Source: OCS116 cluster bacterium AG-390-I16 (lineage in GTDB: Bacteria > Pseudomonadota > Alphaproteobacteria > MED-G09). Taken from it: a DNA stretch of 64,000 bases. Shown here piece after piece: positions 40,374-58,732 of this stretch (position 1 is its first letter; each line of letters starts with the position of its first letter). Where the stretch lies: contig QCGZ01000003.1 in NCBI GenBank assembly GCA_003279705.1, positions 6,932-70,931 of the forward strand, given 5' to 3'. The translations under genes were made by a program, and so were the position numbers. Below the pieces are notes generated by a model that had not been told where the DNA came from, ran no database searches, and saw nothing but the letters and a program-made list of their open reading frames with translations.

Positions 40374-41306
40374 ATGACAAAGTATACAAAAAGTAAAACA
40401 TCTTTAATTATTGGACGATGGCAACCTTGGCATGAGGGGCATAGAGGTTTATTTGAGGCTGCTTTAGAAAGAGCTGAGAAAGTCGCTATTGGTGTAAGGC
40501 ATACCTACGCAACTGATGGAAAAAATCCATTCACTTTTGATGAGGTAAAAGAATTTATTGATAAAGATTTATCAGAAAAGTTTAGTGGAAAATATGATGT
40601 TATTGAACTACCAAACATTACAAATGTCATTTACGGAAGGGATGTTGGATATAAGGTCGAAAAAATTTCTCTTGGCGAAGATATAGAAAAAATTTCGGCA
40701 ACTGAAGTTAGAAAGTCAATGAATCTTACCCCTGTTAGTCATAGCGTTGAAGTAAGTGAGCGTTCAAAAAGATTTGGTCATGAGGGTGGTATTATATGGT
40801 TTACAGGTTTATCTGGATCAGGAAAATCAACTCTTGCAAAAGCATTAGAAAGAAAGCTTTTTGATAAAGGTTATAATGTTTATATGCTTGATGCAGACAA
40901 TATTAGAGATGGATTAAACTCAAATTTAGGATTTTCCAATGAAGATAGAAATGAGAATATTCGTAGGGTTGGAGAAGTTGCTGCATTATTTGCGAATGCG
41001 GGTTTTATTGTTTTATCAGCCTTTATTTCACCTTTTAATTCTGACAGGAAAAAAGCTTTAAATGCACATCCAAAGAATTTTCATGAGATATACTTATCAG
41101 CAGATATCAATGTATGTGAGGGAAGAGATATAAAAGGTCTATATAAAAAAGCAAGGGCTGGAGAAATTAAAGAATTTACTGGAATAGACTCTCCTTACGA
41201 AGTTCCTAAGTCACCATCATTAGAAATTGATACTGAAAATTTAACTGTAGACCAGTCTATTGATGAATTATTTAGTTTTATTCTTAACAAAATTCCATTA
41301 AAGTAA
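40374..41306 (+). CDS. cysC: two-domain protein: N-terminal class-I nucleotidyltransferase (HxGH / ISxTxxR) fused to C-terminal adenylyl-sulfate (APS) kinase
   Basis: Residues 1-125 carry GRWQPWHEGH (HxGH) and ISATEVRK (ISxTxxR), as in TagD/CCT/NadD-type nucleotidyltransferases. Residues ~135-310 are a full APS kinase (P-loop GLSGSGKST, LDADNIR, FISPF). Confidence 0.8.
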   Translation: MTKYTKSKTSLIIGRWQPWHEGHRGLFEAALERAEKVAIGVRHTYATDGKNPFTFDEVKEFIDKDLSEKFSGKYDVIELPNITNVIYGRDVGYKVEKISLGEDIEKISATEVRKSMNLTPVSHSVEVSERSKRFGHEGGIIWFTGLSGSGKSTLAKALERKLFDKGYNVYMLDADNIRDGLNSNLGFSNEDRNENIRRVGEVAALFANAGFIVLSAFISPFNSDRKKALNAHPKNFHEIYLSADINVCEGRDIKGLYKKARAGEIKEFTGIDSPYEVPKSPSLEIDTENLTVDQSIDELFSFILNKIPLK

Positions 41307-41346: not shown

Positions 41347-41367
41347 TTGTAACATTATGTTACAATT
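41347..41367. promoter_or_regulatory. perfect palindrome TTGTAACAT-T-ATGTTACAA containing a 12-mer shared with the giant-protein upstream region
   Basis: 9-bp arms with a 1-nt centre at 41347-41365. The 12-mer TATGTTACAATT (41356-41367) recurs exactly at 43555-43566. Confidence 0.3.
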
Positions 41368-41524: not shown

Positions 41525-43483
41525 ATGAAACTACTACCTGAACAAAATAGTTTTGAAACTAATGATTTGAATGAAAAAAAACTCCCTCCTATTTTTACAG
41601 TTAAGAAAAAAGATACTGGAATATTTTCCGCTGTTACACTATCACTTATTCTTGCTGCTTGTGGCGGAGGCGGAGGCGGCGGATATGACGCTGTAAGCCC
41701 AACTCCTGATTCAGGCTCAGGTGGTGATTCAGGCTCAGGTGGTGATTCAGGCTCAGGTGGTGATTCAAGCTCAGGTGGTGATTCAGGTTCAGGTGATAAT
41801 ACCACAACCGCTGACGGTGTTAATTTAAATAGTGGTTCTGTTGCTGCAACTGCAGGTGCAGATGTCTTTATATATGATGTACAATTTAGTGGTACAGATG
41901 TTGTTGGTGTTGATGGTAATGTAACTATTACTGATTTTGATCCTAGCCAAGACAGTATTCAATTAAGAGGAACTGGTGCTCCAGGATCATTTACTTCAGC
42001 TGATCTTGCTGCGGCAACAAATATCGATATTTCATCACAAACAATTGACAATCAAACAGTGATATTCTTTTCTCCTGACTCATCAGGAAATTCATCATCC
42101 CTTACAATTAAAGGAATTACTGATGATGATTTATCTTCTATAACTATTTCAGCTTTAGAAGGCGAAGCTGATGCAGATACTTCTGGTACAACCTCAGGAA
42201 CAGGAATTGATTTATCTTCAGGAACAGTAGACGCATCATCTGCTAGTGAGAATTTTGTTTATAGCGTTTCATTTGTTGATGGAAGTCCAGTTGCTTTAGA
42301 TGGTAACATCGTTATTAAAGGTTTTGATGTTACTAATGATACTTTAACATTAGCTGCTGAATCAGTTCCAGCTGGATTTACGAAGAGTTCATTGTTAAGT
42401 GCTGCAAATGTTGACGTTGTTGCTGAGACAATAGACAATAAAACAACAATTTATTTTGCACCTGACTCAGCAGGAAAATCTTTTTCTATTACTTTAGAGG
42501 GAGTTGTTGATGCAGACTTATCTTCTATCAGTCTTTCAATTGAATCAGGAGGAGTTTCTGCAGATACTCAGGCTATAGTTGGTGGTACAAATGTTGATAT
42601 TACCTCCGGTGATGTTACAGCAACTGATGATGCTGAAAATTTTGTTATTGATGCAACCTATTCTGGCAATACTATAATTGCTGATGATGGCCCAGTGACA
42701 ATTAATGGTTTTGATCAAACGAATGATAAGCTAGTCATTTTAGCTTCTGATATGCCAATCGGATATGGCCTTTCAAACTTTAAGTCAGCCGCTGGAATAG
42801 ATATTTCAAGTCAGACTATTGATAATCAAACTGTGATTTATTTTGCACCTGATGCAACCGGTGCTTCTAGCTCAGTTACTTTACCTGGTATTGTTGACGC
42901 AGATTTAAGTAGTATAACAATTGTATTTACATCTTCATTAACAACTGTCGCAGCTTCGACTGACTCTGGTTCTGATGCTACAGCTACAGAAATAGTTGAA
43001 GAAACTACTACAGAAGAAACTACTACAGAAGAAACTACTACAGAAGAAACTACTTCGGAGGACTCTGCAGTGACATATAATATAGTAGATATCCCTTCAG
43101 CAACTGAAGCAACTTCAATTAGTGCTACTGATGGTGCTGATGAATTCCGTTACGAATTTAATGTATCGTCCGGTAATGGTCTATCTTCAGAAGGAAATGT
43201 TGAAATAACAATAAATAATTTTGATGCTGCTAACGATAAAATTGTTTTTGTTAATGTTGGAGGAACTGATTTAACTGTTGACGAGTTTAAAGCTTTAGGT
43301 GGTTTAGAGATTTCAGGTAACTCTTTTGATAATGTTACAGGTTTTTATTTTGCACCAGATAGCGCAGGCGCATCTGGTACATTAAATGTGGAAGGTGTTT
43401 ATGATGCTGACCTCACAACGATTACAGTTGAGATTTTATCTGATACTAACCTATCAGCTTCATCAAGTGGGGATCTTGGTTAA
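41525..43483 (+). CDS. surface lipoprotein with Gly/Ser/Asp linker and ~5 tandem ~110-aa modules (adhesin/S-layer-associated-like)
   Basis: Lipobox LILAACGGGGGG, then (DSGSGG)x5. Modules repeat around the motif [IV]T[IV]xxFDxxxDxL ... IDxxT[IV]x[FY]F[AS]PD. An (EETTT)x4 spacer lies near the C-terminus. No Cys after the lipobox. Confidence 0.7.
   Translation: MKLLPEQNSFETNDLNEKKLPPIFTVKKKDTGIFSAVTLSLILAACGGGGGGGYDAVSPTPDSGSGGDSGSGGDSGSGGDSSSGGDSGSGDNTTTADGVNLNSGSVAATAGADVFIYDVQFSGTDVVGVDGNVTITDFDPSQDSIQLRGTGAPGSFTSADLAAATNIDISSQTIDNQTVIFFSPDSSGNSSSLTIKGITDDDLSSITISALEGEADADTSGTTSGTGIDLSSGTVDASSASENFVYSVSFVDGSPVALDGNIVIKGFDVTNDTLTLAAESVPAGFTKSSLLSAANVDVVAETIDNKTTIYFAPDSAGKSFSITLEGVVDADLSSISLSIESGGVSADTQAIVGGTNVDITSGDVTATDDAENFVIDATYSGNTIIADDGPVTINGFDQTNDKLVILASDMPIGYGLSNFKSAAGIDISSQTIDNQTVIYFAPDATGASSSVTLPGIVDADLSSITIVFTSSLTTVAASTDSGSDATATEIVEETTTEETTTEETTTEETTSEDSAVTYNIVDIPSATEATSISATDGADEFRYEFNVSSGNGLSSEGNVEITINNFDAANDKIVFVNVGGTDLTVDEFKALGGLEISGNSFDNVTGFYFAPDSAGASGTLNVEGVYDADLTTITVEILSDTNLSASSSGDLG
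41708..41797 (+). repeat. 18-bp tandem repeat x5 (GATTCAGGCTCAGGTGGT), in-frame, encoding (DSGSGG)5
   Basis: Five head-to-tail copies, with 1-2 substitutions in copies 4 and 5. Confidence 0.9.
42998..43057 (+). repeat. 15-bp tandem repeat x4 (GAAGAAACTACTACA), in-frame, encoding (EETTT)3-EETTS
   Basis: Four head-to-tail copies. The last has 2 substitutions. Confidence 0.9.
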
Positions 43484-43557
43484 CTGTAAAAAATAAATTA
43501 ATATGTGGTCATAATTCTGCCATTATTAATTTATAAACAAAGACTGTAGACAAATAT

Positions 43558-43583
43558 GTTACAATTTGTTACATAAGTTTACA
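43558..43583. promoter_or_regulatory. three direct GTTACA/GTTTACA repeats at ~10-bp phasing upstream of the giant-protein gene
   Basis: GTTACA at 43558 and 43568, and GTTTACA at 43577. The helical-turn spacing is typical of response-regulator-type sites. The first copy overlaps the shared 12-mer. Confidence 0.3.
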
Positions 43584-43644
43584 TAAAAAAAGGAAATAAA
43601 GTTTTTGACAAATTTGGTTAAAACGTGTTTTTTAAATAGTGATT

Positions 43645-43665
43645 CGCAATTTATTTTAAATTGCG
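43645..43665. promoter_or_regulatory. perfect inverted repeat CGCAATTTA-TTT-TAAATTGCG 30 bp upstream of the giant-protein start
   Basis: 9-bp arms with a 3-bp spacer, followed by CTTTTATT. It is either an operator in the 5-prime UTR/promoter or a weak terminator hairpin for the upstream gene. Confidence 0.3.
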
Positions 43666-43695
43666 CTTTTATTAACGTCCAAAAGGGAGAGTAAC

Positions 43696-46600
43696 ATGGC
43701 TACGTTAAATGCAACAACATCGAGTGATATTTTAATTCCAACTAATAATGGAGTGACCTATAGAGGTCTTGCAGGAGATGATACTTATATATTATCAAAT
43801 GCTATAACAGCTAATTCTAAAATTAGTATTGTTGATACTTCTGGTTCTAATAAGATTCAGTTAGTAGATGGATTATCAATTGCATCTTCAAAATTTGCAG
43901 CTGATGCCGTTCAACTAACACTTTCAAATGGAGCCGTTGTTACAGTCAATGGTGCTGATAAGTTTTCATTTGATGTAGGTGGCAACGCAACCTCAGGAAC
44001 AATTGGTGCGGTTAGCACTTTTACAGAATTTGCTTCAGCAATGGGCGTAGCATCTCTTCCTACAGGTACAACTCTTACTGACGGTTCAGCTGATGTTTCT
44101 ATTTCAGGTACATCTGTTGGCGCAGCAGGAGCTAACGTAAGCTATACAATTACAACAGATATAACTACTGTTGGTGAAGGTGAAGCTGCTACAGTTACAG
44201 TTACTCCAAGCGCAGCACCTAGTTCTGCACAAACAGTAACAGTTTCAGTTTCTGGTAGTGATAATGGTGGTGCTTTAACAGCAGCATCTATTGGTGATTA
44301 TGAAGTGAGCACTGGTTCACTTACTTTCGCTGCTGGTTCATCTGCAGCTCAAACATTTACTGTTACAGCATCTTCTGATGTTACAGCAGAACCACTTGAA
44401 GGATTAAAAGTTTCATTATTAGACGATTCCCTTAACGTCTTAGGAACAAAAATTCTCGGTATTTCTGATAACAGTGCAACTGCAGCTCAAACATTCACAC
44501 TAAGCTCAACAACTAATACAGTAACTGGTGGTGTTGATAATATGACTGGTGCTGGTGGTGACGATACATTTAACGCAACAATTGCTGCATCGTTAACGTC
44601 TGCTGATATTATTGATGGTGGCGCAGGTACAGATACATTAAACGCACGTTATTCTGTCACAGCTGCTTCAACTCAAACTGCTACAGTTTCAAATGTTGAG
44701 ATTGTTTATGTTGATACAGATGATGGTGATACAACTGCCGCTCATACAACAACATTTGATTTGGCAACTTTCACAGGTGTTGATCAAGCATGGGCCTACA
44801 ACAATGACTCAAATGCTACTAATCAGGATATTTTAAATATTACAAATATTCCATTAGGAACTACTGTTGGTGTTAAAGGTGGTGATGCAAATGCAAATAA
44901 TACATTTACTTATCTTTTAACAACAGCGTTAACTGATACAGCAACTCTAGCCTTAGATACTGCAAAATCTGATTTGATTACTATTGCTGGTATTGAAGCG
45001 CTAACAATTTCTGCAAGTGGTAAAAGTACAATTGACCAAATTGCAACTACTTCAGCTTTAACTCTTACTGTTAATGCAAGTGGTAAAACAGTGTTAACTG
45101 ACATTGATGATGTTACAAGAACCGTTGATGCGTCAGGATCAACTGGCGATGTAACAATAGCTGGTGTAGGTTCATATTCAAAAGGTACATCCATTACAGG
45201 TGGTTCAGGTAATGACACAATTAATATGGGTGGTAATCTTAACTCATTAGATACAGTTGTTGGTGGTGATGGTATTGACACACTTCTAGTTACAGGTAAT
45301 GCTAACACTCTTGGTATGGGTGCTGGAGTTTCTGGTGTTGAAGTATTTGGTGGTAGTACCGCTAATGCTGATCAAACATTAAGAATGGATACGGTTGCTG
45401 AAGCTTCTAGTTTCTATGTAGTAAATGCCGATGGTAATGATAATGGTACTGCATTCACAACAACTTTATCAAAATCAGAAAATGGTGATGTTATTAATAT
45501 CTATGCTGGTTCATCTGAATCAGACGCAACGGATGATGGTACAGCAGTTACTGTTACTGCTGCTGTTGATAGTACAACAGATGACATTACTTTTGTTCTT
45601 GCTGGTATTGGTGCTGCTGCTAAAACATCTGGCAATGATGCTTATGCAGCTACATCAGGTATACAAACAATTACAGCTTCATCACACGAAACTGTAAATA
45701 TTACATCAAATGCAAACGCTACGAACGCTGCTATTACTAAAAATGCGATCGAGAGTTTGGTTACTACAGTTGGTAAAGCTGTTAATATTGATGGTACAAC
45801 AAACTTAAGAGTAAATATGGGTTCTTCACCTACAACTCTTCTAAGTATTGATGCTTCTGAACTTGATGCTAAATTAGAGCTTTATGGTGTTGATGCCTCA
45901 GGTAGTGCTTTAGGTCAAAATACAATTAAAATGGCTATGAAAAACTCTACTGTTGATATGGCTGGCCTAAATGTTTATGACACAATTGTTGGTGGTGCTG
46001 GTACAGCTGACTATCTTTTAGCTACAGCTATAACTGGCTTAACTACAGCTTCAGGTGCTCTTAATATTTCAGATGTTGAAACAGTTGCTCTATTATTAAC
46101 TGGTGCTAATACAAGTATTTCAGTGGCCGGTGTAACTGGAATGAATACTCTTGAATTAGGTCACGTTTCAGGCACAGGTACTGCCCAAAAAATTGTTGGA
46201 CTTGATGCAGATACAACTGTTCAATTAGGTGTAAATAATTCTGACACTGATGGTACTGATCAAGTATTTGATGGTGGTGGTACACTTACATTAGCACTTG
46301 CTGATGAAACAGGTGCTGATGATACACTTAAATTAGCTGTATTCTCTGCTGCTGCTACAACAGATGTTGCAATTAAAACAACAGCAATTGAGAATATTAA
46401 CGTCGCTGTTAGTGCCTTAAAAGCGGGTGATGCAACTGTTAATTTAGCCGCTGCTTTAGCTAAGACTGTTACTGTTTCAGGTGGTGACGGTGCTGCTGTT
46501 GATGACCTTGCATTAGGAACATTCTATAAAACTGTTGATACTCTAACTAGTACTTTTGTTGGTAATATCACAGCTAACCTATCTGCATATTCATCTCCAG

Positions 46601-48513
46601 ATGGTATTACAGGTGTTACTGCATCTGCATTAGGTATGTATGATGCAACATTTAGCCTCGTATTATCTGGTTATAATGATACTGTTACTATTGGTAAATC
46701 TTCAACAACTGCTGGTCCAACTGTTACAGGTGGTGCTGGTACTGCTGACGTATTAAACCTTACTGTTGCAGCTGGTTTCCAAGACTTTGATGATATCACT
46801 GGTTTTGAAACAATTAACTTAGCCGTTAATGCCGGTGACTCAATCACAGTAGGTGCTAGCGCTGACGAACTAGACGGTATTGTTGGTGCTAAAAGCCTTG
46901 TTGTTACTGGTGGTAATGCTGTTAGTGTTTTAACACTTGGTGGAACTAACGATAAACTTGATGGAATAACATTGAATAACATCGATGCATCAGGTTTCGG
47001 TGGTTATATTTCACTAGTTTATGATACAGATGACTGGACAAATTCATTAAGAGCTCAAGCAATTATTGGTGGTGGAACTATATACGATAAAGTAACTGCT
47101 ACTTATGATGCTGCTGTTACTGCGAATGCTGCTTACAAAGTTAATACAACAGCTGTTGAAACAATTTTAGCAACATTTGATAGTGGAAATGATGGTTCTG
47201 AAACATATTACTTTGATGTTCTTAAATCAGACGCAGGCACAATTCAGTTAAATACTAGTACTAGTGGTAATACTGTTGTTAATGTTGTGAATATTGCTAC
47301 TAATGATGGTTCACAAACATTCCAGTTAGGTGGTACTGCTGGTGATGGTTTTGCTAATAGTTCAACTGCTAATTTCTCCTTAACATCAACAATTGCTACT
47401 GATACAGCTCTAACAGTTGGTCTTAAAGACACAGATGCAGCTTCTGGAACAATTCAGATTGACGCTGCTGGTGTTGAGAACTTAACACTTGATTTATTTG
47501 CAAATGCTGAAAATCACCAAGTTGATTTAGCAGGTGTTACTCCTACATCAGGTTCTGTTGGTTCAGTAACTGTTAAAGGTGGTCTTACTGGTACTCTTAC
47601 AGTTACTAACATGGGTGCTTCTCAAACTACACTTGACGGTACAGCATCCAATTCAGCAATTACACTTGCTGCGGCTTCAAGAACAGATAGTGCTATGACT
47701 ATTACTGGTTCACTTGTAAATGACTCACTAGCTATGGAAAACGTAGCTGACGTTATGGATGGTAGTACTGGTACAGGTGATACATTAGTTGTTGCTTATA
47801 CTGGTATTATTGGCGGTATTGTTATTGATCTAAGTGCCGATGACCAAGTCACTAATATGGACGGTGCATCTAATAGTGCTATCCAGAAGAACTTTGAAAA
47901 TGTAAACGTTAACGCTTACACTAATTTTGGTGCTTCAGTAACTGGTACATCTAAGGCTAATACAATTACAGGTACACCACTTAATGATACTATTACTGGT
48001 GGAAATGGTGCTGATACTATAATTGGTAATGGTGGTGATGATATTGTTAGACTTGCAGAAACTGTTTCTGCTGCTGATACTGTTACACTTGCCGTAGCTT
48101 CCAGTGATACTGCAACAATTAGTGGTTTTACTATGAATACTGATATTATTGACGGTGATGCTTCAGCTGCTACTGGTAATGGAACTCCTGCAAATACTAT
48201 TATGCAAGCTGCTACTAATGCCGCTGGTGCTGTTGCTGCTGATATTGGTACAAATTCATTAGTTGTTATTGCAACGGATGATACTTCAACTGCTGCAGTC
48301 CTAACCGCATTGAATGCTGGTACTTTTGACACCACTGTAATGACAAGATGGTTCCTATATGATACTGGTTCTCAGCTTGTTCTTGCAAAAGGTGCGAGTG
48401 CTGATGCTATTGATAATGGTAATGTAACTCTAACTGAGTTTGCAACATTTAGTGATATTACTGATATTACATCAACTACATTAACTACTGCTTCAACTAT
48501 CGACTTTATCTAA
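43696..48513 (+). CDS. giant (1605 aa) Thr/Gly/Ala/Ser-rich secreted repeat protein with RTX-like Ca-binding motifs; T1SS-substrate / S-layer (RsaA)-like
   Basis: No N-terminal signal peptide and no Cys. Strong Shine-Dalgarno (AAAGGGAGAG-N5-ATG). Multiple GGxGxDxUx nonapeptides (DGGAGTDTL, GGSGNDTIN, GGDGIDTLL, GGNGADTII, GNGGDDIVR). Calx-beta-like segment TFAAGSSAAQTFTVTA...EPLEGL. Confidence 0.8.
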   Translation: MATLNATTSSDILIPTNNGVTYRGLAGDDTYILSNAITANSKISIVDTSGSNKIQLVDGLSIASSKFAADAVQLTLSNGAVVTVNGADKFSFDVGGNATSGTIGAVSTFTEFASAMGVASLPTGTTLTDGSADVSISGTSVGAAGANVSYTITTDITTVGEGEAATVTVTPSAAPSSAQTVTVSVSGSDNGGALTAASIGDYEVSTGSLTFAAGSSAAQTFTVTASSDVTAEPLEGLKVSLLDDSLNVLGTKILGISDNSATAAQTFTLSSTTNTVTGGVDNMTGAGGDDTFNATIAASLTSADIIDGGAGTDTLNARYSVTAASTQTATVSNVEIVYVDTDDGDTTAAHTTTFDLATFTGVDQAWAYNNDSNATNQDILNITNIPLGTTVGVKGGDANANNTFTYLLTTALTDTATLALDTAKSDLITIAGIEALTISASGKSTIDQIATTSALTLTVNASGKTVLTDIDDVTRTVDASGSTGDVTIAGVGSYSKGTSITGGSGNDTINMGGNLNSLDTVVGGDGIDTLLVTGNANTLGMGAGVSGVEVFGGSTANADQTLRMDTVAEASSFYVVNADGNDNGTAFTTTLSKSENGDVINIYAGSSESDATDDGTAVTVTAAVDSTTDDITFVLAGIGAAAKTSGNDAYAATSGIQTITASSHETVNITSNANATNAAITKNAIESLVTTVGKAVNIDGTTNLRVNMGSSPTTLLSIDASELDAKLELYGVDASGSALGQNTIKMAMKNSTVDMAGLNVYDTIVGGAGTADYLLATAITGLTTASGALNISDVETVALLLTGANTSISVAGVTGMNTLELGHVSGTGTAQKIVGLDADTTVQLGVNNSDTDGTDQVFDGGGTLTLALADETGADDTLKLAVFSAAATTDVAIKTTAIENINVAVSALKAGDATVNLAAALAKTVTVSGGDGAAVDDLALGTFYKTVDTLTSTFVGNITANLSAYSSPDGITGVTASALGMYDATFSLVLSGYNDTVTIGKSSTTAGPTVTGGAGTADVLNLTVAAGFQDFDDITGFETINLAVNAGDSITVGASADELDGIVGAKSLVVTGGNAVSVLTLGGTNDKLDGITLNNIDASGFGGYISLVYDTDDWTNSLRAQAIIGGGTIYDKVTATYDAAVTANAAYKVNTTAVETILATFDSGNDGSETYYFDVLKSDAGTIQLNTSTSGNTVVNVVNIATNDGSQTFQLGGTAGDGFANSSTANFSLTSTIATDTALTVGLKDTDAASGTIQIDAAGVENLTLDLFANAENHQVDLAGVTPTSGSVGSVTVKGGLTGTLTVTNMGASQTTLDGTASNSAITLAAASRTDSAMTITGSLVNDSLAMENVADVMDGSTGTGDTLVVAYTGIIGGIVIDLSADDQVTNMDGASNSAIQKNFENVNVNAYTNFGASVTGTSKANTITGTPLNDTITGGNGADTIIGNGGDDIVRLAETVSAADTVTLAVASSDTATISGFTMNTDIIDGDASAATGNGTPANTIMQAATNAAGAVAADIGTNSLVVIATDDTSTAAVLTALNAGTFDTTVMTRWFLYDTGSQLVLAKGASADAIDNGNVTLTEFATFSDITDITSTTLTTASTIDFI

Positions 48514-48540
48514 TAGTTAGCTAGATATTAATTTAATTAA

Positions 48541-48567
48541 AGGGTCTCTCATGAGACCCTTTTTTTA
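48541..48567. terminator. bidirectional Rho-independent terminator between convergent giant-protein gene and sulfotransferase operon
   Basis: AGGGTCTC-tcat-GAGACCCT hairpin, then a T7 run on the plus strand. The minus-strand side is A/T-rich. Confidence 0.7.
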
Positions 48568-48574
48568 TTGATTA

Positions 48575-50224
48575 TTAGTTAAAAAGTTCTGGGAGATATT
48601 TGATATAGTTTTTATATTTATCTATACCCTTTGTGTTTAATTTCATTCTTACTTGCGCATTGCTTGCTGTATTGGTTGATTTCTTATTTAAATGGAAGTC
48701 TTCCATTTCTTTCGTATAATTAATTTCAAGCCATTCTGTTAGTTTTGAGATTGTATGATTAAATTCGTGTATAATACTTTCATAAGATATCTTATAAATA
48801 TCCTTTTTATATTCTAAGTTCCAAAAATCCATTAATTCTGTATATTCATTGTAGTAGGTTTTTAAGGACTCAATATCATGTGTATATGCATTACCCTCAT
48901 CAAATCTCTGTTGATAAAGCGATAATAAATTATCATTTTTGTTTCTATATATATGAATTATTTTTGATTGAGGTAAAGCCCGTTGAATAATACCAATATT
49001 TAAAAAATTATAAGGCATTTTATCGATAAAATATTTAGACTCACCAAAACTATTTTTAATTTGATTAATATAATTTTCTCCTATTTTTGGCCAAATATCT
49101 TTATATGATGATATTAATACAGACTTAATATTACTTTTTTTTACTTCCTGTTGAGTCGCTCGTTCTAAATATTTTAATTCACCATATCCTTTTATACTAC
49201 TATGCATTGTTAAGATCTGTTCAAGTAGAGTTGAGCCTGTTCTTGGCATACCTATTATAAAAATTGGTTTCATTTTTATATTTTTAGTGTTTGTTATACT
49301 TTTGTAATTATCATTTACATATATTTTTTTTATCGATCTTATTAGTCTAATCTCTTTAGGAATTTCACTATTGAAATTTATAAATTTTGATCTATTTGCA
49401 ACTTTAAGGAATTTGGAGGCTTTTTTAAAATCATTCTCAGTATCATAAATTTTTGATAATCCAAAAGCATACTCATGCAAATCTTTATTAATTTTATTAT
49501 TAGCTATAAGATTTTCAATATTTTGAGTTATCTTATTTTTAGAACTAATTCCATTAATAAAGGCCAGAGACCTAAAAGCTTCTTTATTTGTTTTATTTAT
49601 TTTCAAAGCTTTTATATAATTTTCTTTAGATTTCTTTAAATCGCCTAGTGATTGATAAATTAGAGCAATATTTGTATACACATTTGAATTTTTGTTGCCT
49701 AATTTTATTGAAAGCTGATAATTTTTTTTTGCATCATCAAATAAATTTAACTCATGATAAATTGTTCCAATAATTGAATATGTATTAAAATTAAGTTTTA
49801 TTTTTTTATTTTTCTTAATCTTATTAATGTATTTAATAGCATCATGATTTTTATTGGTGATTCTTTGTAATTCAAGTTTTGTATTTATTGTCTCCAAATC
49901 CTCAGGATTTTTTGTTAAAATTTCATTAATTTTTAATTCAACATATTCATAATCTTTAATATGATTATTTTTTAATTTTATTAAATTTTTTTTTATATCT
50001 ATATTTTCATCAAATAGATTATCAACTTCTTCATAAAATTTTATCCCTTGATCGACTTGATTAAGATCAATATATAGCTCTGTAAGTAAATTCAATACCT
50101 CCAGGTTAACTTGTTTTTTTAGTAATACTTTACCAATCTTAATTGCTTCAGTTTTATTATTTTTTTTTATAAGTTTTTTAAATTCTTTAAAAGCTTCATC
50201 TTTTGTATATTTTCTTATCATCAA
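48575..50224 (-). CDS. TPR-repeat / sulfotransferase-domain protein (paralogue 3 of 3)
   Basis: N-terminal TPR-like Lys/Asn-rich helical repeats. The C-terminal domain has the PAPS 5-prime-phosphosulfate loop IFIIGMPRTGSTLLEQIL and the 3-prime-phosphate motif (R...S: IYRNKNDNLLSLYQQRF). Confidence 0.8.
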   Translation of the reverse strand: MMIRKYTKDEAFKEFKKLIKKNNKTEAIKIGKVLLKKQVNLEVLNLLTELYIDLNQVDQGIKFYEEVDNLFDENIDIKKNLIKLKNNHIKDYEYVELKINEILTKNPEDLETINTKLELQRITNKNHDAIKYINKIKKNKKIKLNFNTYSIIGTIYHELNLFDDAKKNYQLSIKLGNKNSNVYTNIALIYQSLGDLKKSKENYIKALKINKTNKEAFRSLAFINGISSKNKITQNIENLIANNKINKDLHEYAFGLSKIYDTENDFKKASKFLKVANRSKFINFNSEIPKEIRLIRSIKKIYVNDNYKSITNTKNIKMKPIFIIGMPRTGSTLLEQILTMHSSIKGYGELKYLERATQQEVKKSNIKSVLISSYKDIWPKIGENYINQIKNSFGESKYFIDKMPYNFLNIGIIQRALPQSKIIHIYRNKNDNLLSLYQQRFDEGNAYTHDIESLKTYYNEYTELMDFWNLEYKKDIYKISYESIIHEFNHTISKLTEWLEINYTKEMEDFHLNKKSTNTASNAQVRMKLNTKGIDKYKNYIKYLPELFN

Positions 50225-50228
50225 TTTA

Positions 50229-52049
50229 TCATTTAAATAATTCTGGGAGATGCTCTTTATAATTCATCCATTTCTCATTAGATTTTGTATATAATGGATT
50301 TCTTACCTGAATTTTACTTGTAGTTTTTACATTATTACTATTCTTATAAAAATTGATTGTATCGTTTGTAAATTCTAAATCAAGCCAGTCGAAAAGACTT
50401 TTAATTGTTGTATCAAAGTTATTTGTTATTTCTTCATAATTAATTCTGTAAATCTTTTCATTACATAGTTTATTCCATTTTTTCATCATCTTTTCATATT
50501 CCAAATAGTATGCTTTAATATTTTTTGCTTCAAAAGCATAACTCAACCCATCTGTAAAACGCTGTTGAAAGATTGATAAAACATTATCATTTTTATTTCT
50601 CTTTATATCTATGATTTTTGCTTCAGGAAATGCCACATTTATTAACCCAATATTTATAAAGTTTTGTGGTAATTTATCAGTAAGAAATCTTGTTTTGTCT
50701 TTGTTTAATGCTTTAATCATTTTTAGATATTCTTTTCTTATGCTTCTAAGAAAATCATCTGGATTTTTTTTATAATCTATCTCCTTAGTATATTTTTCAA
50801 TTAATTCAGGAAGAAATACAAGTTCTCCTGCAGCTGTGACTTCATTACTAGTATGCAAAACTTGTTCTAGAAGAGTTGATCCTGACCTAGGCATCCCTAC
50901 AATAAATATTGGTTTTATAGTATTTTCTTTAACCTTTATTTTTCGTATGTTTTGATAAAAATAAATTATATCTTCACAATTTTTTTTGAACTTCTCAATA
51001 GGAAAATTTTGATCTAAGTCAATATATTCGTTTGCCTTTTTTAAAAAATAAGCTGCTTTCTTAAAATTTTTTTTTCTGTCATAGACCGTGTAAAGAGCAA
51101 AGCCTAGAGATGCTCTATCTTCATTTTTACTGATTTTTTTAAATTCTTCCTCATAGAAATCAATATATTTTGAGTAATCAGTTAATTTTCCTGTATTTAC
51201 GAGATTTCTAAAAGATTCGTATGAGTCTTTTCTTACTTTAATTGCTTCTTTGTAGGCTTTTATTGCATTGTTGAAATCACCTATATGATCATAACAAATA
51301 CCCATATTGTGAAAGCTTTCTGATGTTTTTTGAATACTATTAGCTTTTTTAAAATTTAAAATAGCTTCTTTATCTTCATTTTGTTTATCAAGGCTTACAC
51401 CAAGATTTATATAAGCTTTATGACATAATTTATTAATCTTAATTGCTTTTTTAAAAATAATTTCTGCCTCATTATTTTTTTTATTTTCTAATAAAACTCT
51501 CCCATAATTTAGATGTAAGTCGTAATCGCTAGGTACTGTTTTTATACATCTTTCATAAAATTGTTCCGCTTTCGTATATTTTTTTTGTATGTAATAAATT
51601 TCTCCTAAATATAATAAAGATGGTATTCCTTTTGGTTGTATTTTTGTTGCTTTAATAAAGTAATTAATAGCTTCATTTAGATTATTTAAGTAAAAATTTA
51701 ATCTTCCTAAATTATGATTTACACCGTATGAATTTGGAAAAGTAGTCTTCGCATGGTTTAGATAATATTCAGATTCATCTAATCTTTTTTCTTCAATTAA
51801 TCGGGTTGATAAATTTATAAAAGATTTCTCATTCACAGAGATTGCTAAGGATTTTTTATAATAATCTATTTCTAAGTCATAATTTTTTTCGTTTTTAGCT
51901 ATTGTTGCTAACATTATAAAAAGATTATCCTCATTTAATCCCTTTTTTAGCAACGCTAATAGAATTTTTTTTGCTTCCTTGTATTCTTTATTATTGAATA
52001 GCTCATTTGCTTTAATTTTTGCCTCTAATGAAGTATATTTTTTTTTCAT
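50229..52049 (-). CDS. TPR-repeat / sulfotransferase-domain protein (paralogue 2 of 3)
   Basis: Same architecture: TPRs, then IFIVGMPRSGSTLLEQVL and IKRNKNDNVLSIFQQRF. 4-bp gap to the downstream paralogue. Confidence 0.8.
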   Translation of the reverse strand: MKKKYTSLEAKIKANELFNNKEYKEAKKILLALLKKGLNEDNLFIMLATIAKNEKNYDLEIDYYKKSLAISVNEKSFINLSTRLIEEKRLDESEYYLNHAKTTFPNSYGVNHNLGRLNFYLNNLNEAINYFIKATKIQPKGIPSLLYLGEIYYIQKKYTKAEQFYERCIKTVPSDYDLHLNYGRVLLENKKNNEAEIIFKKAIKINKLCHKAYINLGVSLDKQNEDKEAILNFKKANSIQKTSESFHNMGICYDHIGDFNNAIKAYKEAIKVRKDSYESFRNLVNTGKLTDYSKYIDFYEEEFKKISKNEDRASLGFALYTVYDRKKNFKKAAYFLKKANEYIDLDQNFPIEKFKKNCEDIIYFYQNIRKIKVKENTIKPIFIVGMPRSGSTLLEQVLHTSNEVTAAGELVFLPELIEKYTKEIDYKKNPDDFLRSIRKEYLKMIKALNKDKTRFLTDKLPQNFINIGLINVAFPEAKIIDIKRNKNDNVLSIFQQRFTDGLSYAFEAKNIKAYYLEYEKMMKKWNKLCNEKIYRINYEEITNNFDTTIKSLFDWLDLEFTNDTINFYKNSNNVKTTSKIQVRNPLYTKSNEKWMNYKEHLPELFK

Positions 52050-54092
52050 TTAATCAAGCTCTGTAAATAAGTCTGGAATAAAATCTTCATAATTTTTCCA
52101 TTTATTGATTGAATTATTAAAAATTTCTTTTCTTACATTAACGTTGCTGGCTGTTTTGACTATTCTTTGATTATTTTCTATTTTTTTCATATCTTCAGAG
52201 TATGATAGGCCTAGCCATTTAATTAAATCACCCAAACTTTCATCTGGATTATGGATAATATCTTCATACGAGATATTAAATATTTTTTTTGCATATTTTT
52301 CATTCCACAGCTGCATCATTTCGCTATATTTCTTATAATAAAATTTAATTTCTTCAGTATTATAAGCATATTGATGAAGACCAATAAATTTAGTTTGAAA
52401 TAAAGATAAGCAATTATCATTTTTATCTCTTTTAATATGTATAATTTTAGCATTATGAAGAGTATTTAAAATGATATGCGCATATATAAAATTTCCCGGT
52501 AGTTTGTCTGTAATAAATGGCTTATTATATTTATTAATTTTTTTTATATTTTCGGTATAGTGGCTATATATTTTATCCCATTGATCTTGATTAATTTTTT
52601 GATCTGTTTTATTTTCGATCAAATTTTCCATTAATCCGCTTAATTCAATTGCTTTAGGCATAAAGGTTAGCTCTCCAGCACCAAAAATATCCTCATGATT
52701 AGATAGTATTTGCTCTAAAAGGGTTGTCCCAGATCTTGGTAGCCCAATAATAAATATAGGGCAGGGGTCGCTGCTGTTTTTTACCAAATTAGGATTTATA
52801 TCATTAAACCCTGACATTATATCGATTATTTTTTTTGTTGTTTGATTGGAGAATTTTATTGTTTTTCTATAATCACTGTTTGCTTGAATTAAATATCTAG
52901 AAGAGTCTTTATATAATTTATTATCACCATAAACTTTTGCAAGCGCAAATGCCATTGATGACTTGTTATCTAAGAGCTTAAGTTTGTCTAGGTTTTTTTC
53001 TGCTTTGATAATTAGCGGGTCATCTATTTTTAATTTCTCTGTATAACTTAGCGCAAGAAGCGAGTCCCCATAATTCGGTTCTAGATTGACGGCTTTTCTA
53101 AATAATTTTTTTGCTTCATCTATAAGACCCATTTGTTGGTATGCAGTTGCTTTATTATGAATGATTTTGACATTTTCAGGAACAATTTTTAATGCCTCAT
53201 CAAATTTTTCAATAGCAGGTTCTCCTTTATTAATCTTCAAAAATAATGTTCCAATATTTGATAATAACTCAGGATTATTACCATTAATTTTTAAAGCTCT
53301 TTGATAGAAGGTAATTGCTTCCTCATAAGCCTCTATTTTTTGAAGGCAATTACCTGTATTTACTAATGAATCAAAAAAGGAAGGATTTATTTTTAATGCT
53401 TTATCAAAATTAATTAATGCTTTACGCAAATTATTCATCTCACTATATGCCATTCCAATTCCATTGTAACCAATTGCATAATCAGGTAGGATTTTTATAG
53501 TTTTATTGTAAAAATTAATTGAATTTTCATAATTTTTATTTTTAAAGTATAAGGAAGCTATTTCAGTTAATAATATTATATCTTCTTGATTATTTTCGAG
53601 ACCTTTTTTCAAATAATTTAACGCTGAATCAAAATTATTAATTTTTGCATATGAATTAGAAATTAAGATTAATACATCTTTTTCAATAGTTTTACTTTTA
53701 TCTATAAATTTTTTTAGATACTTAATAGAATAGTCATACTCATTTAATGAGTGATAAATTATTCCAAGATTTTTATATGGAAATAAATTTTTCTCATCAT
53801 AATTAATTGATTTTTTAAAAGCTATAATAGCTTGTTCATTTTTTTTTGTATTATAGTAAGCACTACCCAATGCATTATATATTTCTGAATTATTGTTTTT
53901 AATGCTAATACCCTTTTTAAATGATTTAATTGCTTCATTATAATTATTTTGAGAACTTTCAATTAGACCTTTTAAGAACCAAATTTCCGAGCTTTTTTTT
54001 GATTTTGAGAAATTTATATGAAGAATTTCCCTTGCCTCAAGGACTCTTCCTTCACCAAAAAAATTTATAGCTTTTTTAATTTCTTTATTCAT
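52050..54092 (-). CDS. TPR-repeat / sulfotransferase-domain protein (paralogue 1 of 3, longest TPR array)
   Basis: TPRs (AYYNTKKNEQAIIAFKKSINYD...), then IFIIGLPRSGTTLLEQIL and IKRDKNDNCLSLFQTKF. Its stop abuts the next paralogue's start codon. Confidence 0.8.
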   Translation of the reverse strand: MNKEIKKAINFFGEGRVLEAREILHINFSKSKKSSEIWFLKGLIESSQNNYNEAIKSFKKGISIKNNNSEIYNALGSAYYNTKKNEQAIIAFKKSINYDEKNLFPYKNLGIIYHSLNEYDYSIKYLKKFIDKSKTIEKDVLILISNSYAKINNFDSALNYLKKGLENNQEDIILLTEIASLYFKNKNYENSINFYNKTIKILPDYAIGYNGIGMAYSEMNNLRKALINFDKALKINPSFFDSLVNTGNCLQKIEAYEEAITFYQRALKINGNNPELLSNIGTLFLKINKGEPAIEKFDEALKIVPENVKIIHNKATAYQQMGLIDEAKKLFRKAVNLEPNYGDSLLALSYTEKLKIDDPLIIKAEKNLDKLKLLDNKSSMAFALAKVYGDNKLYKDSSRYLIQANSDYRKTIKFSNQTTKKIIDIMSGFNDINPNLVKNSSDPCPIFIIGLPRSGTTLLEQILSNHEDIFGAGELTFMPKAIELSGLMENLIENKTDQKINQDQWDKIYSHYTENIKKINKYNKPFITDKLPGNFIYAHIILNTLHNAKIIHIKRDKNDNCLSLFQTKFIGLHQYAYNTEEIKFYYKKYSEMMQLWNEKYAKKIFNISYEDIIHNPDESLGDLIKWLGLSYSEDMKKIENNQRIVKTASNVNVRKEIFNNSINKWKNYEDFIPDLFTELD

Positions 54093-55164: not shown

Positions 55165-56871
55165 TCAGTCTAATTGCCCCTTGTTTGCTCTTTGAACAAC
55201 TTGGTCAATTGGTCCATCAACCATAATGTTACCATTACCTATAACGATTGTTCTATCAGTAAGTCCAAGTAAAGAATTTTTATGTGTTGTTAAAATTAAG
55301 GTCAAATTTTTTGAAAACTCCTTTATATTCATAATAAAGTTCTTTTCGGTTTCTCCATCCATTGAACTTGTTGGCTCATCCATAATTAATATTTTTGGCT
55401 CTCTTATAATTGCCCTAGCAATAGCAATAGTTTGACGTTGACCTTCGGATAGATTCCTACCATGTTCACCTAAAACAAAATCATATCCATTTGGTAGTCT
55501 TCCTATAAATTCATGACAGCCTGAAATTTTTGCAGCAATTTCTACTTTTTCCATTGTTGGATTATCAATACCAGCTGTTATATTCTCAAAAATTGTCCCT
55601 GAAAACAATTGAGTTTTTTGAGGAACATACGCAATTGCTCTTCTTAATTCTTCCCCAGAGATATTGTTGATATCAAAACCATCGATAAAAATCTGGCCAT
55701 TTTCTACCTTATTAAATCCAACTAAACATTTTAATAATGTAGATTTTCCTCCTCCTATTGGTCCTAATATTGATACTTTCTCCCCAGCATTTATTTTTAA
55801 ATTTATATTTTCTAAAATAGATCTTCCATCATTTATAAAATTAAGTTTTTCAAGATTAAAGGATCCATTTGCTATTGCAATAGTATGAGATTCGGCATCA
55901 AATTTTTCATCAATTGATTCCTCTTTCATCAGATGATCGAGCCTTTTATAGGCTGCTAAGGTATTATTTAATCTTGAAAAAACTTGGCCAAGTTGTGCTA
56001 GTGGCGCCATACATCTTCCTGATAAAATAATACAAGCAATTAATGCACCCATGCTTAGGTCTGCGCTAGCAATTAAGAAAACTCCATAAAAGACCATACC
56101 GTTTTGGCTTAGTTGTTGAGAAGTTTGAGAGAAAATAACCGCTATATTAGAAACGGTTTTGTTGATAATTGATACTGAGTTTTGTTCAATAACAGCTTTT
56201 TTCCATCTTTTGCTTAAAAAACTACCACCCGAAGATGTTTTTACTGCTTCTAGATTATTTAGAAGCTCTATTAACGTGTGCATTTTTGTACTTGAAGTTT
56301 TTATATGTTTTTCAGAATAAACCTTTAAAAAAGGAATTACCGTTGCTGAAACAATAAGAACAAGTGGAATTATTAATAGAGGAACAATAACTATATTACC
56401 GCCAATTGACCACAAAACAGCAAGAAAAAGAAACATAAAAGGAACATCAACTAATAAAACCATTGTTTGAGAACCAAAAAAATCTCTTACTCCATCAAAT
56501 TCTCTAACAGTAGAAGTAATATTATTTGCATTTTGGGATAGCTCCCCGGCTTCATGCGAAACAAACTTTTTAAATAATTTATCAGCAATATTATCATCTA
56601 AAAGGCTGCTTCCTACATCAGCAAAATAACCCCTTATAAGTTTTGTAATAAAATCAAAAACAACAATTACAACAATACCTATTGTAAGTGCATATAAAGA
56701 GTCGAATGCATTATTTGGAATGACTCTATCATAAACAGTCATTACATAGAAAGCTCCAAAAAGAGCAAAAATATTTATAACAAAAGAGGCAATGAGAATT
56801 TGGATATATATTTTTTTATTCGATCTCACTGCTCCCCAAAACCAATGCTCTTTATCCTGAATAGATGACAT
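55165..56871 (-). CDS. type I secretion system ABC transporter (PrtD/AprD/RsaD type; no C39 peptidase domain)
   Basis: 568 aa. 6-TM N-terminal domain, then an NBD with Walker A GPIGGGKST, signature LSEGQRQ and Walker B ILIMDE. The length and the absence of a peptidase/CLD domain match PrtD-type exporters. Confidence 0.85.
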   Translation of the reverse strand: MSSIQDKEHWFWGAVRSNKKIYIQILIASFVINIFALFGAFYVMTVYDRVIPNNAFDSLYALTIGIVVIVVFDFITKLIRGYFADVGSSLLDDNIADKLFKKFVSHEAGELSQNANNITSTVREFDGVRDFFGSQTMVLLVDVPFMFLFLAVLWSIGGNIVIVPLLIIPLVLIVSATVIPFLKVYSEKHIKTSSTKMHTLIELLNNLEAVKTSSGGSFLSKRWKKAVIEQNSVSIINKTVSNIAVIFSQTSQQLSQNGMVFYGVFLIASADLSMGALIACIILSGRCMAPLAQLGQVFSRLNNTLAAYKRLDHLMKEESIDEKFDAESHTIAIANGSFNLEKLNFINDGRSILENINLKINAGEKVSILGPIGGGKSTLLKCLVGFNKVENGQIFIDGFDINNISGEELRRAIAYVPQKTQLFSGTIFENITAGIDNPTMEKVEIAAKISGCHEFIGRLPNGYDFVLGEHGRNLSEGQRQTIAIARAIIREPKILIMDEPTSSMDGETEKNFIMNIKEFSKNLTLILTTHKNSLLGLTDRTIVIGNGNIMVDGPIDQVVQRANKGQLD

Positions 56872-58250: not shown

Positions 58251-58259
58251 TTTAAAATG

Positions 58260-58550
58260 TTAATCAATAATCTCTATTTCTTCATCGTCCTTTGTTTTTT
58301 TATTTTTGGAAGTTTCTTTTTTTGATTTACCCCCATTTGCTTCACTAGCAGCGGCTTCTTGAGCTTCTTTTACCTTTTCATTTAATTCAGTAACACCAGA
58401 GGCAAGTTTATTAACTATTTCTCCAATCTTTGCAGCAGGAATTTCTATTGTTTCAAGATTTTCCATAACTCCTTCTGGATTCATTTTTTGACCCTGAATT
58501 CTTACTATTCCTAAATTAATTGATATTGATGTTATATCGTCAATAAGCAT
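58260..58550 (-). CDS. hypothetical small charged protein, first gene of the T1SS operon
   Basis: 96 aa, no signal peptide or TM. Coiled-coil-like, Lys-rich middle and acidic C-terminus (DDEEIEIID). GGGAG Shine-Dalgarno 6 nt upstream of the ATG. 9-bp gap to tolC. Confidence 0.5.
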   Translation of the reverse strand: MLIDDITSISINLGIVRIQGQKMNPEGVMENLETIEIPAAKIGEIVNKLASGVTELNEKVKEAQEAAASEANGGKSKKETSKNKKTKDDEEIEIID

Positions 58551-58597
58551 TATTTTCTCCCATTATGATTTAATTAATATTAAAATCTCTAATTCTA

Positions 58598-58732
58598 TAT
58601 GGTTATTAATTATTATGTTTCAAGTATCATTTAATAACTAATAAATTTAATTAGAACATCTACTACAAATATATAATATATATATAATGATTAGCTTATA
58701 ACAGATTCTGGAATCTTATGGTTATTAATTAT
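58598..58732 (+). repeat. 16-bp exact direct repeat TATGGTTATTAATTAT (58598-58613 and 58717-58732), second copy containing the start codon of the TPR-oxygenase gene
   Basis: Two identical 16-mers 119 bp apart. The first copy opens an 11-codon uORF (MVINYYVSSII*) with the same first five codons as the downstream gene (MVINY). Confidence 0.6.

Follow-up and report, generated by a model that had tools for sequence, protein, structure and literature searches.

The window analysed here is a stretch of 64,000 nucleotides from OCS116 cluster bacterium AG-390-I16 (assembly GCA_003279705.1, contig QCGZ01000003.1, positions 6,932 to 70,931 of the forward strand). It encodes a giant protein of the repeats-in-toxin (RTX) type beside genes for a type I secretion system (T1SS), a lipoprotein and several putative modification enzymes. 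The reading preferred here, with a probability of about 0.6, is that the giant protein is an RsaA-like surface coat of a streamlined, OCS116-related marine alphaproteobacterium: after modification in the cytoplasm it would leave by the T1SS, and the lipoprotein would serve as its dock at the surface. For the formation of a lattice the odds are put at even. An RTX surface-layer (S-layer) protein exported by an adjacent T1SS is of a known kind; the setting and the accessory genes are the new part. The coordinates of all features are collected in Table 1.

The open reading frame (ORF) of the giant protein opens at the most upstream start codon after a stop, and the residues Met1, Ala2 and Thr3 are identical in all eight aligned homologues of the N-terminal domain. 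This means that the start codon is right and that no signal peptide is hidden upstream. The N-terminus is polar (the 19-residue Kyte-Doolittle mean does not exceed 0.9 across the first 75 residues), and no Sec or Tat signal is seen. The protein consists largely of Thr (16.3%), Ala (13.5%), Gly (11.1%), Ser (9.1%), Asp (8.7%) and Val (8.3%), contains no Cys and is acidic, with 169 Asp and Glu residues versus 44 Lys and Arg residues. The strict calcium-binding nonapeptide GGxGxDxUx begins at residues 308, 502, 523 and 1435; these four copies compare with 0.077 expected (1000 shuffles, maximum of two). Looser copies are at residues 285 and 1444. The RTX family PF00353 matches residues 1417-1451 with 26.6 bits, above the gathering cut-off of 23, and the score is 30.3 bits when only the C-terminal 189 residues are scanned. 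This region, which holds the tandem pair GGNGADTII-GNGGDDIVR, is the only stretch of the protein that passes the PF00353 threshold, and the pair begins 170 residues before the end. The original prediction, made from the letters alone, had described a Cys-free protein of 1605 residues, rich in Thr, Ala, Gly, Ser and Val, without a Sec or Tat signal, with dispersed nonapeptides and with this tandem pair about 170 residues from the C-terminus; each of these points was borne out. No NCBIfam family matched the giant protein, and no catalytic or receptor-binding domain was found in the Pfam and NCBIfam scans.

Models of residues 1-900 and 801-1605 were made with AlphaFold2 from family alignments; the mean predicted local distance difference test (pLDDT) values were 83.4 and 81.4, respectively, and both halves were nearly all beta. 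The N-terminal module (residues 1-131) is followed by a disordered linker and a beta-sandwich. For this sandwich, a Calx-beta-like segment had been predicted. The sandwich itself was modelled, but the family assignment stayed below threshold: PF03160 scored 22 bits on residues 146-265 alone (E 1.7e-4), below its cut-off of 27, and it gave no match in the full-length Pfam scan. The Calx-beta pair CBD12 of NCX1 was one of many Ig-like matches of the sandwich (E 7e-3). In the body that follows, a module of about 215-245 residues recurs five to six times in degenerate form. A self-comparison for repeats had been proposed: plain self-BLAST showed no internal repeats, and the self profile-profile alignment gave off-diagonal matches (E 5e-46) at shifts of about 215-245, 460-490 and 820 residues. 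Several of these modules start with Gly/Asp-rich, calcium-type turns (TGGxGNDT...GGxGxDTL). A linker modelled with low confidence separates the RTX block from the small C-terminal domain.

Conservation within the family is lowest in the C-terminal 150 residues (conservation profile 0.13-0.19), and no curated model for a C-terminal T1SS signal matched the giant protein. Nevertheless, the ending itself is of one kind, in that most of the aligned family members end with an Asp or Glu followed by two to four hydrophobic residues (DFI, DLV, DFILA, FEIIA and DFVLA). Such an ending is the signature of T1SS substrates of the protease, lipase and S-layer class.

In a Foldseek search against the PDB, RsaA, the S-layer protein of Caulobacter crescentus, was the top match of both modelled halves (6p5t, 6z7p and 5n8p; probability 1.00), with E values of 3e-6 over about 780 columns and 1e-4 over about 900 columns. 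RsaA, which the original prediction had named for comparison, is the best match among solved structures, though with low superposition scores. The next matches of the C-terminal half were the RTX domain of CyaA, serralysins and T1SS lipases; the model of residues 801-1605 has the beta-roll fold in common with RsaA and with these domains. On these models, the giant protein is placed in the same architectural class as RsaA, not in the RsaA family.

The T1SS genes belong to a minus-strand string of seven genes, with gaps of 0-75 nucleotides, which converges on the giant gene as had been predicted. In order of transcription, the string encodes a 96-residue protein, a TolC-type channel, an ATP-binding cassette (ABC) transporter, an adaptor or membrane-fusion protein (MFP) of the HlyD family and three sulfotransferases with tetratricopeptide repeats (TPRs). 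The sulfotransferase genes stand between the giant gene and the T1SS genes, and the MFP, the ABC transporter and the channel are all encoded within 10 kb of the giant gene. The ABC transporter was best matched by the LssB-type model TIGR03375 (623.8 bits), at profile positions 135-695 only: the first 134 positions, which correspond to the C39-like domain, are missing. The MFP matches the HlyD model in two stretches, as though its helical hairpin were shortened. The 96-residue protein has a Lys/Glu-rich tail and belongs to no family; ORFs of 91 residues are at the equivalent place in two related loci (L003 and L074). At this locus, the giant protein is the sole linked candidate for secretion that has no signal peptide.

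Eighty related metagenomic loci were gathered with a profile of the N-terminal module, and their gene content was taken from a tblastn census. A T1SS is present in every related locus that reaches far enough, namely L001, L003, L073 and L074 and 10 of the 32 metagenomic loci with at least 8 kb of downstream sequence. On gene arrangement and sequence, the giant protein is very probably secreted by the adjacent T1SS; this is the firmest part of the reading.

The three TPR-sulfotransferases follow the T1SS genes on the same strand and appear to be co-transcribed with them. They have neither a signal peptide nor a transmembrane segment, and the loop PR(S/T)G(S/T)T, which binds 3'-phosphoadenosine 5'-phosphosulfate (PAPS), is retained. 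Among solved structures, the catalytic domain is nearest to the human tyrosylprotein sulfotransferases (TPST) 1 and 2 (5wrj, E 2.5e-7 over 204 residues), and the TPR arrays resemble those of O-GlcNAc transferase (OGT). The sulfate donor would probably be supplied by the adenosine 5'-phosphosulfate (APS) kinase encoded on the other side of the giant gene. This enzyme (NCBIfam CysC, 254 bits) is fused to a domain resembling nicotinamide mononucleotide adenylyltransferase (NMNAT): NMNAT models match residues 10-82, and in the PDB it matches NadM (2qjt, E 8e-8). The fusion was found in 12 of the 18 related loci with enough upstream sequence. Three of the other six could be classified by their downstream cassette, one being of a glycosylation type and two (L091 and L077) having a canonical ATP sulfurylase. 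In fusion-less loci, a short APS kinase and a canonical ATP sulfurylase are encoded beside the giant gene (compare L077, 11851-13274). The fused NMNAT-like domain might be a non-canonical sulfate adenylyltransferase.

Beyond the T1SS, positions 58718-62482 encode a TPR-containing 2-oxoglutarate (2OG)-Fe(II) oxygenase, a TPR-only protein and a NodU-like carbamoyltransferase. TPR-2OG oxygenases recur beside homologues of the giant protein in related loci. The GC content is 0.24-0.27 at 48000-54000 and 58000-64000 versus 0.30-0.38 elsewhere in the window; that of the giant gene is 0.38, and it drops to about 0.25 over the T1SS genes as well as those for modification. The low values are consistent with an exchangeable island for surface modification.

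The same region differs among relatives. A modification cassette, a T1SS or both were found in all 32 of the metagenomic loci with sufficient downstream sequence: 13 had glycosyltransferase and methyltransferase genes, two had these together with a 2OG oxygenase, eight had a 2OG oxygenase and a T1SS, eight had sulfation genes and one had a 2OG oxygenase alone. In L073, a metagenome-assembled genome of the Hyphomicrobiales, the interval between the giant gene and the T1SS encodes a methyltransferase, two glycosyltransferases and four proteins with domains of dTDP-sugar (rhamnose-type) synthesis, and genes for a TPR-methyltransferase and a TPR-2OG oxygenase are nearby. In L076, a TPR-GT41 (OGT-type) enzyme is encoded immediately after the homologue of the giant protein. 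The size of the giant protein varies with the cassette: it is 2044-2272 residues in the glycosylation loci (L073 and L099-L151) and 1392-1750 residues, with one exception of 2047, in the sulfation/2OG loci (the window, L001, L003, L074, L077 and L078-L098). Judging from gene content, related loci exchange the sulfation cassette for a glycosylation cassette. The original prediction had included neither this exchange nor the lipoprotein partner, the APS-kinase fusion or the sulfotransferases in the T1SS string.

What these enzymes act on is the point at which an alternative has the most force. The sulfotransferases could act on a glycan or a lipid instead: together with the 2OG oxygenase and the carbamoyltransferase, they would then serve an O-antigen, a capsule, a Nod-factor-like molecule or another polysaccharide or lipid, and would have no more in common with the coat gene than a place in one hypervariable surface island. 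The island-like GC content of the modification genes (about 0.25; giant gene, 0.38) fits this view, as do the NodU-like carbamoyltransferase, a weak NoeE match, a UDP-glucose dehydrogenase encoded in the window and the rml genes of L073, which are classic polysaccharide genes. In addition, the Tyr content and the acidic contexts of Tyr residues give no clear signal for tyrosine sulfation, which speaks against the giant protein as the acceptor. (A slight enrichment in Tyr, about 1.8% in the sulfation-type loci versus about 1.35%, was rejected as evidence for sulfation: it is confounded by phylogeny and size class.) However, no flippase, polymerase or initiating transferase is present beside the L073 cassette among the genes called within 10 kb on each side; L076 carries a flippase-type Polysacc_synt gene and a Poly_export gene upstream of its giant gene. 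Furthermore, sulfotransferase, 2OG oxygenase, methyltransferase and GT41 domains, of three to four catalytic classes, all bear TPR arms here, as is typical of enzymes that act on proteins (OGT and FlmG, for example), and the sulfotransferases, whose catalytic domain is nearest to those acting on protein tyrosine, are in the same gene string as the T1SS. A polysaccharide or lipid target is considered less likely than not, but has a substantial chance. Modification of protein is favoured by the TPR arms on unrelated catalytic classes and by the precedents of FlmG and Rax, and the giant protein is tentatively taken as the substrate of sulfation.

The gene directly upstream of the giant gene encodes a lipoprotein of 652 residues. 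Its four repeats are found also in four homologues by hidden Markov model (HMM) search. No Pfam or NCBIfam family matched it, and its profile showed weak similarity to the R-modules of AlgE (E 0.0018). In all 50 metagenomic loci with at least 700 nucleotides of upstream sequence, and in all six loci collected earlier whose giant protein bears a module of the type of residues 1-131, the gene immediately before the giant gene is that of the lipoprotein, on the same strand. Three loci in which the giant protein has another N-terminus (DUF4214-type or other) lack it. This linkage is kept across giant proteins that have diverged to about 35% identity.

The module itself is much better conserved than the rest of the giant protein (52-92% identity versus about 35% for the body). 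With HMMER, an exhaustive search returned 687 clusters that contain it, and a copy is present even in the betaproteobacterium Candidatus Accumulibacter. It is often not N-terminal: in other proteins of secreted type it is C-terminal or internal, in two to five copies, and is combined with beta-lactamase-fold, metalloprotease, Big_5/PPC, RTX/Calx-beta and RCC1/Lcl_C/BACON domains. In its occurrence at either end and in multiple copies, it behaves like a portable binding module rather than a dedicated N-terminal plug. One metagenomic protein, P0136 (629 residues), is a beta-lactamase-fold enzyme that bears the module twice, at the N-terminus and close to the C-terminus; it lacks a signal peptide, and its tail (...FAEFDIVIVSSDFG) is of the acidic-hydrophobic kind. 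The module may thus display enzymes as well as the coat protein.

The module had no Pfam match and no sequence match in the PDB. Its only profile matches there, designed TIM barrels (E 0.025), were dismissed as relatives. Homology between the repeats of the lipoprotein and the module was also rejected, the repeat HMM having found nothing significant in the giant proteins, and what similarity giant protein and lipoprotein showed before correction for composition was due to composition alone. Linkage and co-occurrence suggest that the module docks to the lipoprotein as its receptor at the surface; this is put at somewhat less than an even chance.

It should be mentioned that many metagenome contigs start within about 60 nucleotides upstream of the start codon of the giant gene (L084, L094-L096, L098, L105, L106, L121, L124, L140, L141, L144, L147, L149, L152 and L154). 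Assemblies seem to break repeatedly between the genes or within that of the lipoprotein; low-complexity coding repeats for Gly, Ser and Asp, or variation within populations, may be the reason.

The lipoprotein and the module also bear on what kind of surface protein this is. An adhesive fibre of the LapA or ice-binding-adhesin type, held in TolC by an N-terminal plug and sticking to particles or cells, would have several of the same properties: LapA, too, is very large and repetitive, leaves the cell by a T1SS and has a folded domain at the N-terminus and RTX repeats at the C-terminal end, and here the adjacent T1SS would export a folded, conserved N-terminal module last. Nevertheless, neither a LapG-type protease nor a LapD-type regulator was found among the ORFs of the window scanned with Pfam, and the ABC transporter has no N-terminal C39-like domain. 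The body is made of beta-roll modules that best match RsaA and not of a string of Ig-like extenders, the mobility of the module fits binding better than plugging, and the linkage to the lipoprotein is strict. As far as we know, this linkage has no counterpart in Lap systems. A fibre of this kind is considered improbable. Roseobacters have abundant RTX exoproteins, and T1SS substrates are released by default; still, release of the giant protein as a calcium- or substrate-binding or toxin-like exoprotein, is the least probable explanation. It would agree with an RTX block and a putative C-terminal signal that are both generic, and with the failure to find a catalytic or receptor-binding domain. 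However, a module far more conserved than the exposed body and linked to a lipoprotein in 50 of 50 loci points to retention, the nearest fold is that of a lattice protein, and modification cassettes that vary between strains are a usual feature of structures on the cell surface.

Several observations weigh against the coat reading. The S-layer label is drawn from a fold likeness of low template-modelling (TM) score and from gene context. The matches to RsaA are weak in superposition (TM-scores of 0.24-0.34, root-mean-square deviations of 14-19 Å), and a phmmer search with the giant protein against all PDB chains, RsaA included, gave nothing at E ≤1; the likeness may reflect a shared beta-roll/beta-helix architecture alone. 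The RTX content is sparse, about six nonapeptides in all. Among the secretion genes, the MFP is unusually short (331 residues; 318-328 in L073 and L001), and the ABC transporter and the TolC-type channel score under their NCBIfam cut-offs. As for docking, the link between lipoprotein and module is indirect, and the loci behind the count of 50 of 50 form one clade and are not independent events.

The DNA upstream of the giant gene had been described as decorated, and the Shine-Dalgarno (SD) sequence as one of the strongest in the window; both descriptions proved apt. The SD sequence has the second strongest anti-SD duplex among the 43 ORFs of the window (-8.2 kcal/mol), and AAGGAGAGAG at this site is kept in homologous loci. 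The intergenic region of 212 nucleotides holds a conserved TGTTACA-N3-TGTTACA element, TTGAC, the block AGTGATTCG, a hairpin and the SD sequence, and these blocks are kept across loci whose giant proteins share only about 35% identity. The block ATGTTACAnTnTGTTACA at the TGTTACA repeats is likewise conserved across divergent loci. Of the very high abundance that is typical of S-layer proteins of the RsaA type, the strong SD sequence and the conserved promoter region are indirect signs at most. The window has four matches to the TGTTACA-type pattern, where 0.11 would be expected, and both the lipoprotein gene and the giant gene are preceded by such sites. The direct repeats are spaced by about 10-11 bp, that is, about one helical turn. 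The TGTTACA/TGTAACA heptamers look like a shared operator, with a spacing that resembles OmpR/PhoB-type sites. The leader hairpin is about 30 nucleotides before the start codon and could stabilise the mRNA or regulate translation; the 5' leader with this hairpin matched no Rfam family. At the other end, a terminator hairpin parts the giant gene from the convergent sulfotransferase/T1SS string.

The giant protein has 303 relatives, nearly all from marine metagenomes and either without names or with generic ones. The lipoprotein has 259; some of these are encoded on contigs 1.44-1.53 Mb long, a length that suggests small genomes. A homologue in an OCS116-cluster single-cell genome is 45% identical over residues 1-532 of the giant protein. 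A locus search from a smaller family alignment returned mostly generic RTX proteins. In L001 (71% protein identity), the order of POT transporter, APS kinase, lipoprotein, giant gene, and modification genes with T1SS is kept; in L003 (32-38% identity) the gene set is kept, and the downstream genes are rearranged and on the opposite strand. Elsewhere in the window, at 8884-11478 on the plus strand, there is a gene for a subtilase of 864 residues (Peptidase_S8, residues 120-446) with a TTG start, no SD-like sequence and a long extension past the domain.

Table 1. Features of the giant-protein locus, in window positions.
Feature	Position	Strand	Basis or remark
APS kinase (residues 115-303) fused to NMNAT-like domain (GRWQPWHEGH)	40374..41306	+	Pfam APS_kinase, E 3e-64
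Palindromic TGTAACA-TTA-TGTTACA upstream of lipoprotein gene	41348..41364	.	Pattern search
Lipoprotein, 652 residues, proposed outer-membrane docking partner	41525..43483	+	Lipobox LILAAC; Gly/Ser/Asp linker; four repeats of about 117 residues
Three tandem TGTTACA-type direct repeats, candidate regulator binding site	43557..43583	+	Upstream of promoter
5'-leader hairpin, 9-bp stem, preceded by AGTGATTCG block	43645..43665 (block and hairpin 43636-43665)	+	Terminator-like scan; conservation
Shine-Dalgarno GGGAGAG, 4 nucleotides 5' of ATG	43685..43691	+	Duplex energy -8.2 kcal/mol
Giant RTX-type protein gene, proposed T1SS cargo and surface-coat subunit	43696..48513	+	1605 residues; longest ORF of its region
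N-terminal module, residues 1-131, all-beta, proposed docking domain	43696..44088	+	Alignment; model pLDDT 80-90
Beta-sandwich, residues 147-265, sub-threshold Calx-beta-like	44134..44490	+	PF03160, 22 bits; model strands 150-257
Beta-roll/beta-helix repetitive body, residues 279-1490	44530..48165	+	Self profile alignment; motifs; Foldseek
Canonical RTX nonapeptide block with tandem pair, residues 1417-1452	47944..48051	+	PF00353 above gathering score
C-terminal region, residues 1514-1605, small alpha/beta domain ending ...ASTIDFI	48235..48510	+	Model; proposed uncleaved T1SS signal
Hairpin, 10-bp stem, A and T run flanks, bidirectional terminator	48539..48562	.	Terminator scan
TPR-sulfotransferase 1, 549 residues, cytoplasmic	48575..50224	-	Sulfotransfer_3, E 2e-31, and TPR; PRTGST PAPS-binding loop
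TPR-sulfotransferase 2, 606 residues, cytoplasmic	50229..52049	-	Pfam; no signal peptide or transmembrane segment
TPR-sulfotransferase 3, 680 residues, cytoplasmic	52050..54092	-	Catalytic domain nearest human TPST; OGT-like TPRs
T1SS membrane-fusion protein, HlyD family, 331 residues	54168..55163	-	TIGR01843, 214.7 bits vs cut-off 208.65; Pfam HlyD_3
T1SS ABC transporter without N-terminal C39 or C39-like domain	55165..56871	-	TIGR03375; Pfam ABC_membrane, ABC_tran
TolC-type outer-membrane channel (OEP)	56883..58250	-	Pfam OEP, E 1e-22; TIGR01844 weak
Conserved 96-residue protein heading T1SS string	58260..58550	-	57% identical copy in L001
TPR-2OG-Fe(II) oxygenase, candidate modifying enzyme	58718..60064	+	Pfam 2OG-FeII_Oxy_5 and TPR

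Taken as a sequence of events, the coat reading runs as follows. The giant protein would be made in the cytoplasm without a signal peptide. While still unfolded, it would be modified by cytoplasmic enzymes that have a TPR substrate-binding arm in common: here the three TPST-like sulfotransferases, fed with PAPS by the APS-kinase fusion, and the 2OG oxygenase, which would probably hydroxylate it; in sister lineages, genes for glycosyltransferases, rhamnose synthesis and methyltransferases at the equivalent position might serve the same purpose. The C-terminal domain, ending in Asp-Phe-Ile, would then be recognised by the adjacent ABC/MFP/TolC system, and export would proceed with the C-terminus first, so that the protein folds outside on calcium. 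The conserved module of about 130 residues would emerge last and dock to the four-repeat lipoprotein in the outer membrane.

A more ambitious version, which joins a mobile docking module of 130 residues and a lipoprotein scaffold in a cohesin/dockerin-like manner to a coat sulfated by exporter-linked TPR enzymes and to swaps of the cassette, is speculative and, as a whole, has perhaps one chance in a few. In the literature searched, which lay mostly outside subscription journals, no prior description was found of an obligate lipoprotein partner, a portable module, TPR-TPST-like enzymes in a T1SS string or alternation of the cassette. On this version, the giant protein would, to our knowledge, be the first sulfated S-layer protein of a bacterium. 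If the contigs of 1.44-1.53 Mb are near-complete genomes, such cells devote much of their DNA to a single surface protein, whose locus takes up about 20 kb. In abundant bacteria of the plankton, the cell surface sets phage adsorption, grazing and contact with dissolved and particulate matter; if the coat alternates between sulfated and glycosylated forms among close relatives, this would be a concrete molecular basis for strain-level variation. Three biochemical leads follow, namely the lipoprotein as receptor for a mobile domain, TPR-tethered bacterial protein sulfotransferases and the fusion of APS kinase with an NMNAT-like domain.

Among known systems, RsaA, which is exported by RsaD/RsaE/RsaF, is the closest in kind. 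RTX S-layer proteins encoded beside a T1SS (RsaA, SapA, SlaA and the S-layer protein of methanotrophs), and the glycosylated SwmA, are established (PMC3034196, PMC13274458). The genes for the ABC transporter and the MFP of RsaA adjoin the structural gene (PMC3034196), and the arrangement is the same here. The two proteins are also alike in the absence of a signal peptide, in a C-terminal signal, here a putative one, that would stay uncleaved, in the C-terminal RTX motifs and in an acidic, beta-rich body. However, the giant protein is about 60% longer and is built of repeats of 215-245 residues, its locus has sulfation genes, and by phmmer against the PDB it has no detectable sequence homology to RsaA. 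The N-terminal anchor of RsaA is reported to be helical and to bind the O-antigen of lipopolysaccharide. In contrast, the N-terminal 131 residues of the giant protein are predicted to be all-beta, and are unrelated and linked to a lipoprotein, a difference that counts against the coat reading as well. The giant protein probably works like RsaA, though by sequence and by its N-terminal domain it is outside the RsaA family.

SwmA is tied to swimming motility. With Sll1951 of Synechocystis, it provides a second comparison: both are RTX-type, T1SS-dependent outer-layer proteins of aquatic bacteria. We know of no described lipoprotein partner for either. Glycosylation has been reported for SwmA of marine Synechococcus (PMC3034196), which parallels the modification cassettes found here. 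Their known modification is glycosylation, not sulfation; no sequence relation was seen, and no search was aimed at one.

Genes for the modification of flagellin adjoin the structural gene and vary between strains, as the cassettes do here. In FlmG, one of several TPR-glycosyltransferases that act on flagellin, the TPR arm binds the secreted flagellin in the cytoplasm and the fused catalytic domain modifies it before export (PMC7591256). The present enzymes differ in their catalytic domains, which are sulfotransferase and 2OG oxygenase, and in the route of export, which is of type I and not of the flagellar type III.

The nearest precedent for sulfation is the RaxX/RaxST/RaxA/RaxB system of Xanthomonas oryzae, in which the gene for a TPST-like, PAPS-dependent sulfotransferase accompanies those for an MFP and an ABC exporter, the substrate is sulfated before secretion and genes for PAPS synthesis are required (PMC4646787). 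Here, likewise, sulfotransferases (PRSGTT loop), MFP and ABC transporter are encoded in one string and an APS kinase is adjacent. The differences are that RaxX is a small peptide whose leader is cleaved and whose ABC transporter contains a peptidase, whereas the candidate substrate here is an RTX protein of 1605 residues and the transporter has no C39 peptidase domain, and that there are three sulfotransferases here, all with long TPR arms. If the more ambitious version is true, sulfation followed by export in the manner of Rax would extend from a small peptide to a structural protein of 1605 residues.

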